A stretch of DNA of 64,000 nt from Patescibacteria group bacterium. Its GTDB lineage: Bacteria; Patescibacteriota; Patescibacteriia; UBA9934; GWF2-40-263. The position numbers and the translations under genes are program-made. Positions within the stretch are counted from its first letter, which is position 1, and the number at the start of each line of letters is the position of its first letter. Where the stretch lies: NCBI GenBank assembly GCA_004297215.1, contig SCUM01000001.1, positions 78,282 through 142,281 of the forward strand, read 5' to 3'. The notes beneath the pieces are model-generated. The model was given only the letters and a program-made list of their open reading frames with translations, was not told the origin of the DNA and did not search any database. Of the stretch, positions 4,772-56,261 are shown piece by piece.

Positions 4772-4799
4772 AAACCCCGCCCTTGTGAGGCGGGGTTTG
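4772..4799 (+). terminator. Rho-independent terminator after rplU
   Basis: aaaccccgcc-cttgtga-ggcggggttt, a GC stem plus T-run, 16 nt after the TAA. Confidence 0.7.
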
Positions 4800-4847
4800 T
4801 CGGTCCCGGGCATGGTGGAGCCGACGGGATTCGAACTGGCACCTCAC

Positions 4848-4983
4848 TGTCATCCTGAACGGAGGCCCTCAGGCCGGAGTGAAGGACCCTGGTCTGGAGG
4901 CCGCCAGATATTTCATTTGGGAATGACCGTCTGGAGGTCGCTCGTCGTGGATCCTTCGTCAGCGGTCCAGACTCAGGATGACA
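4848..4983. repeat. About 136-nt MITE/REP-like element, copy A, with terminal inverted repeats TGTCATCCTGA...TCAGGATGACA
   Basis: About 80% identical to copy B at 49617-49751. Internally self-complementary (ctgaacggaggccctcagg... / ...ggatccttcgtcagcggtccagactcag). Lies between the rplU terminator and the convergent GIY-YIG gene. Confidence 0.7.
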
Positions 4984-4999
4984 ATGAAGGATGGGATTG

Positions 5000-5296
5000 T
5001 TAGTGCAGATTTCCGCTGACATCCGCCCAGATGGGATTCACCGAATCGATAAGGGCGATCTTCTTCCTGCGGACCCATCCCTTTATCTGCTTCTCCCTGG
5101 TGATCGCTTCGTAAGCGCCGGAGAACGCCTCGAAGTAGACGAGCTTCGTGACATTGTATTTTGCCGTAAACCCTTTCACGAACTTCTGATGATGTTCGTA
5201 TACACGACGAGCAAGATTGTTCGTGACACCGGTATAGAGCACGTGGTTGGTGACATTTGTCAGGATGTAGACGGCGTATTGTCTGTCGTGTGCCAT
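5000..5296 (-). CDS. GIY-YIG nuclease superfamily protein (YhbQ/UPF0213-like)
   Basis: MAHDRQYAVYILTNVTNHVLYTGVTNNLARRVYEHHQ...KYNVTKLVYFEAF...REKQIKGW is a GIY-YIG core. Start placed at the Met preceding the domain. The annotated ORF extends to 5407 with a TTG start, but that N-terminal extension overlaps a repeat fragment. Confidence 0.7.
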   Translation of the reverse strand: MAHDRQYAVYILTNVTNHVLYTGVTNNLARRVYEHHQKFVKGFTAKYNVTKLVYFEAFSGAYEAITREKQIKGWVRRKKIALIDSVNPIWADVSGNLH

Positions 5297-5514
5297 AGAT
5301 GATCCTTCGTCGGCTGAGGCCTCCTCAGGACGACATGAGTGTCGCCTCCACGGCCCCTGGAACGTTTCCGTTCCTGCCCGGGGAACATACAAAACGACCC
5401 CCATCAAAGATGGTAGGTCGTTTTGTTGACACCCAGATTTGGAGGTTACCCTCGCTGGTTATTCATAATCTATCAGAAGTTTTGGTTTTCGTCAACGGTC
5501 TCCCTGTGGAAAAG

Positions 5515-48550: not shown

Positions 48551-49627
48551 ATGCCCGGCCCAAAGCCCAAAGTCCTGCTCGGCATGTCCGGCGGCGTGGA
48601 TTCGTCCGTGGCCGCGGCTTTGCTGCTGGAGCAGGGATATGAGGTGATCGGGGCGTTCATGAGGAACTGGAGCGACTGCGCCTGGAGGGCGGACAGGCGC
48701 GACGCGAACCGCGTCGCGGCCCAGCTTGGCATCCCGTTCCTCACGCTCGACTTCGAAAAGGAGTATCGGGAAAAGGTCATCGACGAGATGTTCCGCGAGT
48801 TTGCCGCCGGTCGCACGCCGAACCCGGACGTGCTGTGCAACAGGCATGTGAAGTTCGACCTGTTCGCGCGCGAGGCCGATCGCCTCGGATGCGACTTCGT
48901 CGCGACCGGGCATTATGCGCGGGTCCAGCACGGCACAGACCCCACCCATGCCCTCTCCTTGGCAAGGGGAGGGGTAGCTCGCCTGATGCGTCCTGCGGAC
49001 ACCGAAAAGGATCAGACCTATTTCCTTTGGGCCATCGAACCGAAGGTGCTGCCGAGGGTGCTGTTCCCGCTTGCGGGGCTCACGAAGCCCGAGGTCCGGG
49101 CGAAGGCGAAGGCGCTTCAGCTGCCGGTCGCGGACAAACCGGATAGCGTTGGGATCTGTTTTGTGGGGGAAGTGGACATGAAACAATTCCTTGCTCAACG
49201 CATCCCGCATGTCCGTGGAAGGATCGTCACGACCGACGGGCGGGACGTCGGCACGCACGACGGGTTGCCGTTCTACACGATCGGCCAGCGCGAAGGGTTG
49301 GGCGTTTCGGCGAGCGAGCCGTATTACGTGGTCGAGAAGCGGATGGCCACGAACGAGCTCGTCGTCGGCAGCGCCTTCGACCCGGGGTTGTTCAAGAAAA
49401 CCGTGTCCGCGAATCAGGCGAACTGGTTCCGTCGCCCGCAGGCAGGGGACCGGGTAGGCGCGCGCATCCGGCACCGCGGGCCGATCGCGCCGTGCACGGT
49501 GGACGCGGTCGGCGACGCGACCGTATCCATCACGTTCGACGAGCCGCAGCGGGCCGTCACTCCGGGGCAATCCATCGTCTTTTACGACGGCGACGAGGTG
49601 CTCGGGGGAGGCGTTTTGTCATCCTGA
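48551..49627 (+). CDS. mnmA: tRNA-specific 2-thiouridylase MnmA
   Basis: PP-loop MSGGVDSSVAAALL...GHYARV. The stop codon lies inside the terminal inverted repeat of repeat copy B. Confidence 0.9.
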   Translation: MPGPKPKVLLGMSGGVDSSVAAALLLEQGYEVIGAFMRNWSDCAWRADRRDANRVAAQLGIPFLTLDFEKEYREKVIDEMFREFAAGRTPNPDVLCNRHVKFDLFAREADRLGCDFVATGHYARVQHGTDPTHALSLARGGVARLMRPADTEKDQTYFLWAIEPKVLPRVLFPLAGLTKPEVRAKAKALQLPVADKPDSVGICFVGEVDMKQFLAQRIPHVRGRIVTTDGRDVGTHDGLPFYTIGQREGLGVSASEPYYVVEKRMATNELVVGSAFDPGLFKKTVSANQANWFRRPQAGDRVGARIRHRGPIAPCTVDAVGDATVSITFDEPQRAVTPGQSIVFYDGDEVLGGGVLSS

Positions 49628-49751
49628 ACGAAGGCCTTCAGGCCGCAGTGAAGGAACCTCGTCTGGAGTCCATCAGACGTTTGTCCTGGGATGATCGTCT
49701 GGAGGTATCCCAACGAGGATCCTTCGTCAGCCGTTCAGTCTCAGGATGACA
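49617..49751. repeat. About 135-nt MITE/REP-like element, copy B (TIR TTGTCATCCTGA...TCAGGATGACAA)
   Basis: About 80% identity to copy A (4848-4983). Sits exactly between convergent mnmA and a FecR-like gene, and both genes end in ...LSS* encoded by TTGTCATCCTGA. Confidence 0.7.
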
Positions 49752-52951: not shown

Positions 52952-53257
52952 ATGCCCATCACCCCCGAAGAAATCCGGCACCTGGCGCATCTCTCGCGGC
53001 TCAAGCTCGACGAGGAGGACGTTGCGGCGTATGCGAAGGACCTCGACGCCATCGTCGGGTACGTGGACAAGCTGCAGGATCTCGACACGAAGGACGTGCC
53101 GGAAATGGAGCATGTCGAGGATCTCGTAAACGTCTGGCGCGAAGATGTCGTCGGCGGATGCGATCCGGACGCGCGTACGCGCATGATCGCGGCGTTCCCG
53201 CGGCACAGCGGCGACCTGCTCGAGGTGGATGCCGTGTTCGCGGACAAGACGGACTGA
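52952..53257 (+). CDS. gatC: Glutamyl/aspartyl-tRNA amidotransferase subunit C
   Basis: MPITPEEIRHLAHLSRLKLDEEDVAAYAKDLDAIVGYVDKL. Confidence 0.85.
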   Translation: MPITPEEIRHLAHLSRLKLDEEDVAAYAKDLDAIVGYVDKLQDLDTKDVPEMEHVEDLVNVWREDVVGGCDPDARTRMIAAFPRHSGDLLEVDAVFADKTD

Positions 53258-53261
53258 TATG

Positions 53262-53391
53262 CCCAGTACTACAACAAGGACATTTTTATCGGTTGACTCC
53301 GTTAGAATTCCTTCAGGTCGAGAGCATCTTTCATTCCAGACGATCGTCCAGGATGCCTTCCTGACGAAGACGTCCTTGTTGTAGTACTGGG
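53262..53391. repeat. Inverted-repeat element between gatC and gatA (20-nt perfect TIRs)
   Basis: cccagtactacaacaaggac ... gtccttgttgtagtactggg flank about 90 nt. The interior resembles the MITE family (ccagacgatcgtccaggatgccttcctgacgaag). Confidence 0.65.
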
Positions 53392-53392
53392 T

Positions 53393-54847
53393 ATGGACCT
53401 CACGTCAGTGACCATCCGGGAGGTCGGGAAGCGGCTCGCCGCGCGGGAGATCTCGAGCGAGGATTTGGTGCGCGCATGCCTCTCCCGCGTCGAAGCGGCG
53501 AATGGCAAGCTGAACGCGCTGCTCGACGTGGACGAGAACGGCGCATTTGCTGCCGCAAGGATCGCGGACAAGGCCCGCAAGTCCGGTGACGACCCAGGGG
53601 CGCTCGCCGGCATCCCGATCGCGATCAAGGACAACGTCTGCGTGACCGGCTGGACCGCCTCGGCCGGTTCGCGCATCCTTGAGCCGCATCGCGCCGCGTA
53701 CGACGCGACGGTCATCACGCGCCTTAGGGCCGCCGGAGCGGTGCTCATCGGTCGCGCGAACATGGACGAGTTCGCGATGGGTTCTTCTACCGAATCGTCG
53801 CACTATGGCCCGACGAAGAACCCGTGGGACGCGTCACGGGTCCCGGGCGGCTCGTCCGGCGGCTCCGCCGCGGCCGTCGCCTCCGGCATGGCGCTTGCCG
53901 CGCTGGGCTCCGACACGGGCGGCTCGGTGCGCCAGCCCGCGTCGCTGTGCGGCGTGACCGGCCTCAAGCCCACGTACGGGCGCGTGTCGCGCTACGGCCT
54001 CATCGCGCTCGCGTCGAGCCTGGACCAGATCGGGCCGCTCACGCGCAGCGTGGAGGACGCCGCGATCGTCATGCGGGCCATGGAAGGGGAGGACGACCTG
54101 GATTCGACGAGCGTCGGCCCGCTCGAGACGTATGTGCCCGAGCTCGACCAGCCTTCGGTCGCGGGGCTGCGCATCGGCATCCCCAAGGAGTATTTCCTTG
54201 AGGGGATGGACGAGCGCGTGAAGGCGTCGGTGATGGAGGCCGTGGCCGAGCTGAAGAGCCAAGGCGCGACGGTGCACGAAGTGTCGCTTCCTCATGCGGA
54301 ATATGCCCTCGCCACCTATTACCTCGTGATGCCGGCCGAAGCGAGCTCAAACCTCGCGCGGTTCGACGGCATCCGCTACGGCTACAGCGCGAGCGCCGAC
54401 AGCCTCAAGGAAACCTACGAGCGCAGCCGCGGCGAGGGATTCGGCGCCGAGGCGAAGCGCCGCATCATGCTGGGAACCTACGTGCTGTCAAAGGGCTATG
54501 CCGACGCGTACTACCGCCAGGCGCTCAAGGCACGCACGCTCATCCGCCGCGATTTCGACGAGGCGTTCAAGGAGGTGGACCTGATCGCGACACCCACGAG
54601 TCCCACCACGGCCTGGAAGTTGGGCGAGAAGTTCGCGGACCCGCTCACCATGTACCTCTCCGACATCTACACCGTCTCCGCCAACATCGCCGGGATCCCA
54701 GCGATGTCGCTCCCGTGCGGGTTCGCCGACGGGCTCCCGATCGGCTTGCAGCTCATGGCCCGCCCGTTCGACGAGGCCACGCTCTATCGCGCCGGCATCG
54801 CGTATCAAGGTGTAACTGATTGGCATCGCCGAACACCAAATCTGTAA
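53393..54847 (+). CDS. gatA: Glutamyl/aspartyl-tRNA amidotransferase subunit A
   Basis: Amidase signature GGSSGGSAAAVA...GSDTGGSVRQPA. 484 aa. Confidence 0.95.
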   Translation: MDLTSVTIREVGKRLAAREISSEDLVRACLSRVEAANGKLNALLDVDENGAFAAARIADKARKSGDDPGALAGIPIAIKDNVCVTGWTASAGSRILEPHRAAYDATVITRLRAAGAVLIGRANMDEFAMGSSTESSHYGPTKNPWDASRVPGGSSGGSAAAVASGMALAALGSDTGGSVRQPASLCGVTGLKPTYGRVSRYGLIALASSLDQIGPLTRSVEDAAIVMRAMEGEDDLDSTSVGPLETYVPELDQPSVAGLRIGIPKEYFLEGMDERVKASVMEAVAELKSQGATVHEVSLPHAEYALATYYLVMPAEASSNLARFDGIRYGYSASADSLKETYERSRGEGFGAEAKRRIMLGTYVLSKGYADAYYRQALKARTLIRRDFDEAFKEVDLIATPTSPTTAWKLGEKFADPLTMYLSDIYTVSANIAGIPAMSLPCGFADGLPIGLQLMARPFDEATLYRAGIAYQGVTDWHRRTPNL

Positions 54848-54850
54848 ATT

Positions 54851-54942
54851 TGTCTTTGCGAGGAGCGTGCCGTCCAGGCGACGAAGCAATCTCCCATCTC
54901 GCGTGAGGTTGCTTCGTCGGCTGAGGCCTCCTCGCAAAGACA
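54851..54942. repeat. Structured inverted-repeat element between gatA and lgt
   Basis: tgtctttgcgaggag ... ctcctcgcaaagaca are the outer arms. The inner arms are cgacgaagcaa / ttgcttcgtcg. Shares cttcgtcggctgaggcctcct with 5305-5326. Confidence 0.6.
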
Positions 54943-56146: not shown

Positions 56147-56174
56147 AAAAAGCTCCCAGTCCTGGGAGCTTTTT
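56147..56174. terminator. Bidirectional terminator hairpin
   Basis: aaaagctcccag-tc-ctgggagctttt, between the DUF302 gene and the tRNA-Ser 3' end. Confidence 0.7.
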
Positions 56175-56261
56175 GGCGGAGAGGGAGGGATTCGAACCCT
56201 CGAACCCTTGCGGGTTGCACGCTTTCCAAGCGTGTGCACTAGACCGCTATGCGACCTCTCC
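56175..56261 (-). tRNA. tRNA-Ser (anticodon GGA), class II with long variable arm, CCA encoded
   Basis: Reverse complement reads GGAGAGG-TCGCATAGCGGTCTAGTGCA-CACGC-TTGGAAA-GCGTG-CAACCCGCAAGGGTTCGAG-GGTTCGAATCCCTC-CCTCTCC-G-CCA. Confidence 0.8.

Follow-up and report, generated by a model that had tools for sequence, protein, structure and literature searches.

Tagged hairpin repeats around a small GIY-YIG nuclease gene in a Patescibacteria genome, probable sites of the Ssn/SRM type with a variant structure

SsnA of Neisseria meningitidis is a 94-residue, single-domain GIY-YIG protein (CDD cd10448) that binds the NTS hairpin, CGTCATTCCCGCGMAVGCGGGAATCYRG, only as single-stranded DNA (PMC11893778, Chenal et al. 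2025, Nat Commun 16:2388). The protein is inactive on double-stranded DNA, on RNA and on the reverse strand, does not bind RNA, and cuts a few nucleotides upstream of the hairpin (PMC11893778). Cutting depends on the three bases 5′ of the palindrome and binding on the C just 3′ of it, and the loop may be altered or extended (PMC11893778). Ssn-related motifs (SRM) are present at 71% of homologue loci and on both sides in 42%, and the NTS-ssnA-NTS layout has been likened by the authors to an insertion sequence (PMC11893778). In Neisseria, the system reduces transformation by NTS-carrying DNA (PMC11893778). The survey set its criterion of Ssn homology at E < 1e-10 and covered RefSeq reference and representative genomes, with a search pattern taken from 29 genomes of 4 phyla; Patescibacteria are not named in it (PMC11893778). 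Ssn (cd10448) is treated there as separate from the UPF0213/Slx1-like family (PMC11893778).

Repeats with a similar tag have been described as CGTC-tagged REPs, which include dRS3 of Neisseria and RPE-4/6 of Rickettsia and are considered to be without a dedicated enzyme (PMC3733652, Di Nocera et al. 2013). They have been found in 5 phyla, Patescibacteria (CPR) not among them (PMC3733652). In the open-access literature, no REP paper was found that links REP or CGTC repeats to GIY-YIG proteins, and no match to the sequence strings of the present repeats was found.

The DNA described here, termed the window, is a stretch of 64,000 nucleotides from the genome of a Patescibacteria group bacterium (contig SCUM01000001.1, positions 78,282 to 142,281). 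An earlier note, made from the letters alone, had pointed to a family of inverted-repeat elements in it. Very probably, the gene at 5000-5296 encodes a single-domain GIY-YIG nuclease of the Ssn family, and the repeats are its cognate hairpin sites (SRM). This reading draws on the anatomy and covariation of the repeats, on their linkage to the gene and orientation around it, and on homology, all of which are demonstrated below. The features on which it is based are as follows.

4848..4983, no strand assigned: doublet A, a pair of inverted hairpin modules around a 60-nt centre, with the tags facing out
4848..4889, plus strand: left module of A, located with the module finder, TGTC-ATCCT-GA[ACGGAGGCCCTCAGGCCGGAGT]GA-AGGAC-CC
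4949..4983, minus strand: right module of A, TGTC-ATCCT-GA[GTCTGGACCGCTGAC]GA-AGGAT-CC
5000..5296 including the stop codon, minus strand: ssn-like gene for a 98-aa single-domain GIY-YIG nuclease (Pfam PF01541, E = 1.5e-16)
5301..5335, minus strand: single module, TGTC-GTCCT-GA[GGAGGCCTCAGCCGAC]GA-AGGAT-C, ending 4 nt upstream of the nuclease start codon
5336..5360, minus strand: leader of ~25 nt (CCAGGGGCCGTGGAGGCGACACTCA), aligned with the cassette of locus L002
49617..49751, no strand assigned: doublet B, gene-less, with modules 49617-49658 (plus) and 49718-49751 (minus)
54851..54942: doublet of 92 nt with a TTGC/GCAA stem variant, between gatA and lgt, with modules 54851-54893 (plus) and 54906-54942 (minus)

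The window thus holds 7 modules in total, two in each of the three doublets and the single one at 5301-5335. All other regular-expression matches in the window fall within GC-rich coding sequence, in numbers expected by chance. The more restricted pattern TGTCRTCCTGA has 5 matches, all within the A and B elements or at 5325-5335.

Doublets A and B were first described as copies of about 80% identity, and end-to-end alignment with blastn gives 81.6%, with ungapped halves at 81% and 83%. Both start with TGTCATCCTGA and finish with TCAGGATGACA, so that the inverted termini previously reported are perfect over 11 nt. The long hairpins that had been proposed were also recovered, with z = -4.0 (A) and -6.3 (B) for folding as RNA; folding as DNA gives z = -3.3 (A) and -5.3 (B). 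A is found between the convergent rplU and TerC/DUF475 genes, and B between mnmA and an unannotated, convergent 216-aa ORF. The earlier note had named a local duplication including the flanking genes as one of two findings that would overturn it. The flanks of A and B are unrelated, and segmental duplication is therefore ruled out.

Both neighbouring genes of B end inside its termini, mnmA with the stop codon at 49625-49627 and the convergent ORF with that at 49741-49743. In both genes, the last three codons and the stop (LSS*; TTG TCA TCC TGA) lie inside these termini, and therefore element B provides both C-terminal ends. Directly outside A, on the minus strand at 4813-4846, a fragment with the sequence TTCGAATCCCGTCGGCTCCACCA looks like the 3′ part of a tRNA, with T-loop, 3′ T-stem, acceptor and CCA, and borders on the outer terminus of the doublet. 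No 5′ half accompanies it, and ARAGORN and Rfam both report no tRNA at this place. The fragment was considered as an integration-scar copy of the 3′ end of tRNA-Ser (56174-56261) and rejected, as the acceptor sequences differ; it may be what is left of a tRNA gene that was disrupted, or of a past integration.

The ~135-nt copies each consist of two modules of 30-45 nt, arranged head to head. A module comprises a TGTC tag, a 5-bp stem, a variable loop closed by GA…GA and an ATC or ACC tail, and can be written 5′-TGTC-A-TCCT-GA-[variable]-GA-AGGA-(T/C)-C-3′; the simplest form, found in other loci, is TGTCATCCTGAGCGNAGCGAAGGATC. Stem covariation was examined in sequences from protein-fetched loci, selected by tag and loop core only, and the invariance of GTC and of the loop core, which are the selection pattern, is therefore no independent evidence. 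Stem positions pair in 99.1% of cells compared to 17-56% in slid controls, and compensatory double changes occur at all 5 variable stem pairs. The resulting stem versions include ATCCT/AGGAT, ATTCT/AGAAT, ACCCT/AGGGT, ATTCC/GGAAT, ATTTC/GAAAT and ATACT/AGTAT, with G.U pairs in just 2 of 217 cells. The stem starts with an A-T pair in 27 of 31 sequences, and the T-A pair that follows is present in 30 of 31. In addition, the C directly after the stem, which was not a selection criterion, is conserved in at least 90%. GTC is preceded by T in 72% of modules and by C in 19%, and the 3′ tail is mostly CTC or CCN.

A second collection, selected by tag, stem and tail only, contains 287 modules. Their loops range from 5 to 60 nt, and 80% of them begin with GA and finish with GA(A). 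GCGNAGC is present in 28% of the 287 modules, with all four bases occurring at N. With N free, GCGNAGC is established as an “extraordinarily stable” mini-hairpin of DNA, whose stability exceeds that of the RNA form (PMC13037366).

An A.C mismatch is frequent at the first stem pair (tail GGACC, not GGATC), for instance in modules 4848-4889 and 49617-49658 and in the L003-L126 modules. G.T mismatches are rare. An A.C mismatch would be a G.T wobble on the complementary strand, and this asymmetry could have a bearing on which strand is read.

The stop codon of the ssn-like gene lies 16 nt from the right module of A. The statement that the window has no transposase overlooks this gene, and the IS200/IS605-like partner that was to be sought elsewhere was not found and is not needed, the GIY-YIG gene between the modules being the partner within the window. 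PF01541 spans residues 7-79 of the 98, and no further domain was detected. Close homologues are mostly 92-98 aa in length, with some database entries of 100-139 aa. Y10, Y21 and E68 are invariant in 28 homologues, and their spacings (11 and 47 residues) are those of Y6, Y17 and E64 in SsnA (PMC11893778). The window protein shares 46% identity (E = 1e-29) with the protein of locus L218, whose gene is flanked by canonical NTS-type repeats, and through this bridging homologue it appears by sequence to belong to the Ssn family. Its minimal domain of ~100 aa is like that of the UPF0213 or bacterial Slx1-like stand-alone GIY-YIG proteins (PDB 1zg2, 1ywl), but its similarity to these is weak (1zg2, E = 0.0026).

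The gene lies between modules, with 5301-5335 on one side and 4949-4983 and 4848-4889 on the other, and copy A together with module 5301-5335 makes up a module-ssn-module cassette. The same layout is found in locus L002, where a nuclease with 82% amino-acid identity is located beside ruvX and recO. The homology between the window and L002 stops exactly at the outer TGACA, and the position of module 5301-5335 relative to the gene is also kept in L002. The leader upstream of this gene-proximal module (CCAGGGGCC.TGGAGGCGACACTCA) matches L002:1800-1826 despite unrelated neighbourhoods. Within the leader, GCGACACTCATGTCGT is able to form a small hairpin that includes the tag.

The association of gene and repeat is not confined to these two loci. 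In 80 metagenomic loci, fetched by protein similarity alone at 52-70% identity to the window protein, 296 strict modules were found compared to 8 in the reversed-sequence control. With a stem-agnostic definition (GTCAT-N3...N3′-ATC), modules number 7.49 per kb up to 150 nt from the gene and 0.27 per kb at distances above 400 nt, and they lie near the gene in 60 of 68 evaluable loci. The 42 loci examined around distant GIY-YIG genes have no module near the gene. A generic finder, which accepted GTC with any 7-bp hairpin after it, was rejected because its background equalled the signal, and the stricter definitions were used instead. The nearest module points its tag outward in 50 of 67 cases upstream (p = 7e-5) and in 49 of 69 downstream (p = 6e-4), and the gene is flanked on both sides by tag-outward modules in 35 of 68 homologue loci. 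Moreover, the proteins are more alike when their genes have the same flanking stem type (identity 0.625) than when the types differ (0.553; 0/1000 permutations).

Doublets also occur far beyond the gene. The exact terminus pair, at a spacing of 95-125 nt, is found at no fewer than 120 loci in species-representative genomes of many phyla, as well as on four viral contigs. Among the matches listed, a homologue of the gene lies within 8 kb of the doublet at 1 of ~120 loci, which counts against the reading of the repeats as cognate sites of the nuclease; most doublets therefore act, if at all, far from the gene. In 839 kb of doublet loci, no other cargo genes were found between inverted module pairs. 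Some doublets and modules form arrays that resemble BIME-like clusters: five 135-nt doublets are found in L071:2751-4085 (Taibaiella chishuiensis), start-to-start at ~230-380 nt, and modules alternate regularly downstream of the gene in L178.

How these modules compare with the published SRM depends on which feature is considered. As in Ssn, the protein is a single-domain GIY-YIG enzyme of ~94-98 aa with the same catalytic spacing, the layout is repeat-gene-repeat, and hundreds of stand-alone repeats exist, frequently clustered. The GA-type modules have the SRM/NTS hallmarks of GTC 5′ and C 3′ of a covarying stem with a free loop; like SRM and NTS, they carry a (C/T)GTC tag, begin the stem with AT, place a C after it and have a variable or extendable loop. 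In contrast to the NTS, with its GC-rich stem of 8 bp and loop of 4 nt, they have only 5 Watson-Crick pairs followed by tandem G.A/A.G, and the loop is GCGNAGC or a nested hairpin of 10-45 nt. Their host is a Patescibacteria metagenome-assembled genome, where the published survey covered RefSeq reference and representative genomes.

The published pattern, HGTCWYN(0-2)YYVSBRHN(0-5)WNVSBRGN(0-2)RNCYNB, is a search heuristic and not a definition; it matches the NTS and the repeats of L213 and L218 and fits 0 of the 7 window modules. The basic GA-type consensus is also unmatched by it, and both results count against the assignment to SRM. Of the 80 metagenomic loci, with their 52-70% identity, none has a published-pattern match within 300 nt and 75 have a GA-type module, while the corresponding numbers for 17 viral-contig loci at 42-56% identity are 9 and 1. 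Given 0 of 80 for the published pattern and 75 of 80 for the GA-type, the window therefore carries a motif variant tied to its own protein clade. Two predictions of folding also count against the assignment: single modules fold weakly as DNA (z = -0.3 to -2.1), and the lowest-energy DNA fold of the doublets pairs the two arms, which would bury the tag.

Since the Ssn/SRM system was published in 2025, the window case is a new example and not a new kind of element: an unusual one, namely a Patescibacteria member of a known system with a structural variant of the motif. It is also conceivable, as a tentative proposal that falls somewhat short of being probable, that the GA-type hairpin (TGTC-AT-N3-GA-[GCGNAGC or nested hairpin]-GA-N3′-AT-C) represents a second major structural class of Ssn motif. 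This class would have its own nuclease clade, span Patescibacteria, Chloroflexota, Acidobacteriota, Bacteroidota, Planctomycetota and other phyla, and have been missed by the published pattern; the hairpin and its nuclease may together make up a compact element that is still moving, with the doublets as gene-less copies.

The assignment to Ssn would extend the range of the system to a member of the Patescibacteria (CPR) with a reduced genome of ~0.8 Mb, and would associate a structurally different recognition hairpin, built on d(GCGNAGC), with a distinct clade of Ssn homologues. Ssn enzymes are under development as site-specific cutters of single-stranded DNA, and a new class of enzyme and site would be a practical lead. 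The assignment would also give an identity tied to a function to a repeat that metagenome-assembled genomes commonly contain, usually unannotated or called as spurious ORFs. Finally, doublets can provide the final codons and stop of real genes, as they do here for mnmA and its convergent neighbour.

A mechanism can be proposed for how the nuclease would use these sites. The module would act as a single-stranded-DNA hairpin, with an unpaired (T/C)GTC tag, a 5-bp stem starting A-T, T-A, a loop closed by tandem G.A/A.G around either d(GCGNAGC), as a mini-hairpin, or a longer hairpin rich in GC, and a C directly following the stem. By analogy with SsnA, the window protein would bind the folded module only in single-stranded DNA. 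The GTC tag would be needed for cutting and the 3′ C for binding, any loop would be tolerated, and the cut would fall 5′ of the tag, at a distance of a few nucleotides. A doublet would present one forward module at the 5′ end of each strand, and therefore whichever strand is exposed would be cut just outside the element. The cellular role may be the restriction or modulation of incoming or replicative single-stranded DNA. Both this role and the enzymatic activity of the nuclease on its modules are inferred from the Neisseria system.

A further question is whether the nuclease and its modules also move. It is possible, if on balance rather doubtful, that the doublets are non-autonomous, REPIN- or MITE-like copies of a still-mobile, selfish module-ssn-module cassette, and it is equally tentative that the nuclease would spread such copies by transposition or break-induced copying. 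The gene lies within an inverted module pair in the manner of an insertion sequence, an architecture also remarked upon for Ssn (PMC11893778). One cassette is found in unrelated contexts in the window and L002, with homology that ends at the terminus; A and B are 82% identical at unrelated sites; and very similar modules are present across many phyla. In addition, a comparison of the syntenic loci L218 and L219/L222 shows differences of a whole doublet and of 23-24-nt hairpins nested in module loops. Against mobility, the all-against-all comparison of the fetched loci gave a pair of filled and empty sites for related NTS-type loci and none for the window elements, and A and B have already diverged by 18%. 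Target-site duplications are absent, duplications of 3-8 nt being at or below chance in 131 doublets. By the SsnA analogy, the cut on a given strand would fall at only one of the two ends of the element. GIY-YIG enzymes hydrolyse DNA; they are not known to pass through the covalent intermediates needed for strand transfer, and no route by which they could join strands is known. Active mobility is best described as plausible and unproven. It would complement the explanation of the repeats as nuclease sites and would not replace it.

The comparison of L218 with L219/L222 can be followed at the level of single hairpins. At L218:1770-2180, a mini-hairpin of 23-24 nt, AGCCTGTGCCCGCRAMGGCGGGTA, is found in the loop of one module in one genome; in the other genome it is found in the partner module in the opposite orientation, and an extra whole doublet is present or absent as well. 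These differences are evidence for nested insertion into hairpin loops at NTS-type loci.

The nuclease link could also be incidental, with the elements acting mainly as RNA, either as bidirectional terminators or as stabilisers of 3′ ends, as the earlier note had suggested. The predicted RNA hairpins are very stable (-58 to -68 kcal/mol, z = -4 to -10), A and B lie between convergent genes, and such a role has been proposed for REP-type repeats (PMC3733652). However, location at convergent gene ends holds for A and B and not for the other two elements that the note had assigned to the family, which lie between genes of the same direction (gatC>gatA and gatA>lgt); the doublet at 54851-54942 is the one between gatA and lgt. 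No T-run follows the outer stems of A, where the sole terminator-like flag is a small internal hairpin at 4892-4909, and rplU and the TerC-family gene have terminator-like hairpins of their own outside the element. The stems, moreover, are nearly without G.U, the loop core is a DNA-specific motif, and SsnA does not bind RNA (PMC11893778). Rfam has no match to the elements: at gathering thresholds it returns tRNA-Ser only for the whole window, and at E <= 10 nothing for 4780-5420. A hammerhead-like reading of CTGA...GAA was dropped, as the invariant core positions do not fit. An action mainly as RNA is thus unlikely, and the idea of a terminator or mRNA stabiliser is not favoured.

It is highly improbable that these are classical REPs or REPINs moved by a tyrosine transposase of the RAYT or IS200/IS605 kind whose gene lies elsewhere in the genome, for despite the similar anatomy (a tetranucleotide tag and then a hairpin, in head-to-head dimers) and the shared absence of target-site duplications (PMC3733652), the tag is TGTC and not GTAG, REPs tagged CGTC or TGTC are reported never to flank tyrosine transposase genes (PMC3733652), and the sole gene found between module pairs is the GIY-YIG gene.

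As nuclease sites, the repeats nevertheless resemble several known families in part. Of the earlier designation as a MITE/REP-like family, the REP-like half is apt, in that head-to-head doublets of a tagged hairpin are built like REP dimers and REPINs; the classical MITE half is not supported, given the missing target-site duplications. REPIN/RAYT systems share with them doublets that fold into long structures, a gene flanked by inverted repeats and recognition of single-stranded DNA. They differ in using an HUH tyrosine transposase with covalent intermediates where a hydrolytic GIY-YIG enzyme is encoded here. CGTC-tagged REPs share the unpaired CGTC/TGTC tag, the A-T, T-A start of the stem, the short 3′ tail and an intergenic, mostly head-to-head dimeric arrangement, but have stems of 8-9 bp and loops of 4-5 nt in place of 5 Watson-Crick pairs, G.A/A.G and a mini-hairpin or expanded loop. 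Classical MITEs, which derive from DDE insertion sequences, are likewise ~100-150 bp long and intergenic, have terminal inverted repeats and can provide stop codons; unlike them, the doublets are without target-site duplication and end in structured, tagged hairpins.

Shorter relatives of A and B had been proposed at three places, and two of these stand, 5297-5340 as the single module and 54851-54942 as a doublet. In the latter, the stem has TTGC/GCAA in place of TCCT/AGGA, a variant accounted for by the ATTGC/GCAAT stem type that occurs in the wider collection. An identical loop segment of 20-22 nt, GGAGGCCTCAGCCGACGAAG, is found at 5305-5326 and 54912-54933, on the minus strand in both cases, in modules with different stems (GTCCT/AGGAT and TTTGC/AGCAA). 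The occurrence of one loop on two kinds of stem suggests that, inside a single genome, module types have recombined or stems have been converted from one type to another.

The third proposed relative, at 53262-53391, belongs to another family. It is a real hairpin element (z = -6.9), with no tag, different termini of 28 nt and no blastn similarity to A or B, and none of the fetched loci has a relative of it. In full, it is a separate hairpin element of 136 nt at 53259-53394, with inverted 28-nt termini (AT[G/A]CCCAGTACTACAACAAGGAC), and it has the look of a classical MITE, with no relation to the tagged hairpins. It fits exactly between the stop codon of gatC (53255-53257) and the start codon of gatA (53393-53395). 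TATG flanks its CCCAGT...ACTGGG core on both sides, like a 4-bp target-site duplication that regenerates the start codon.
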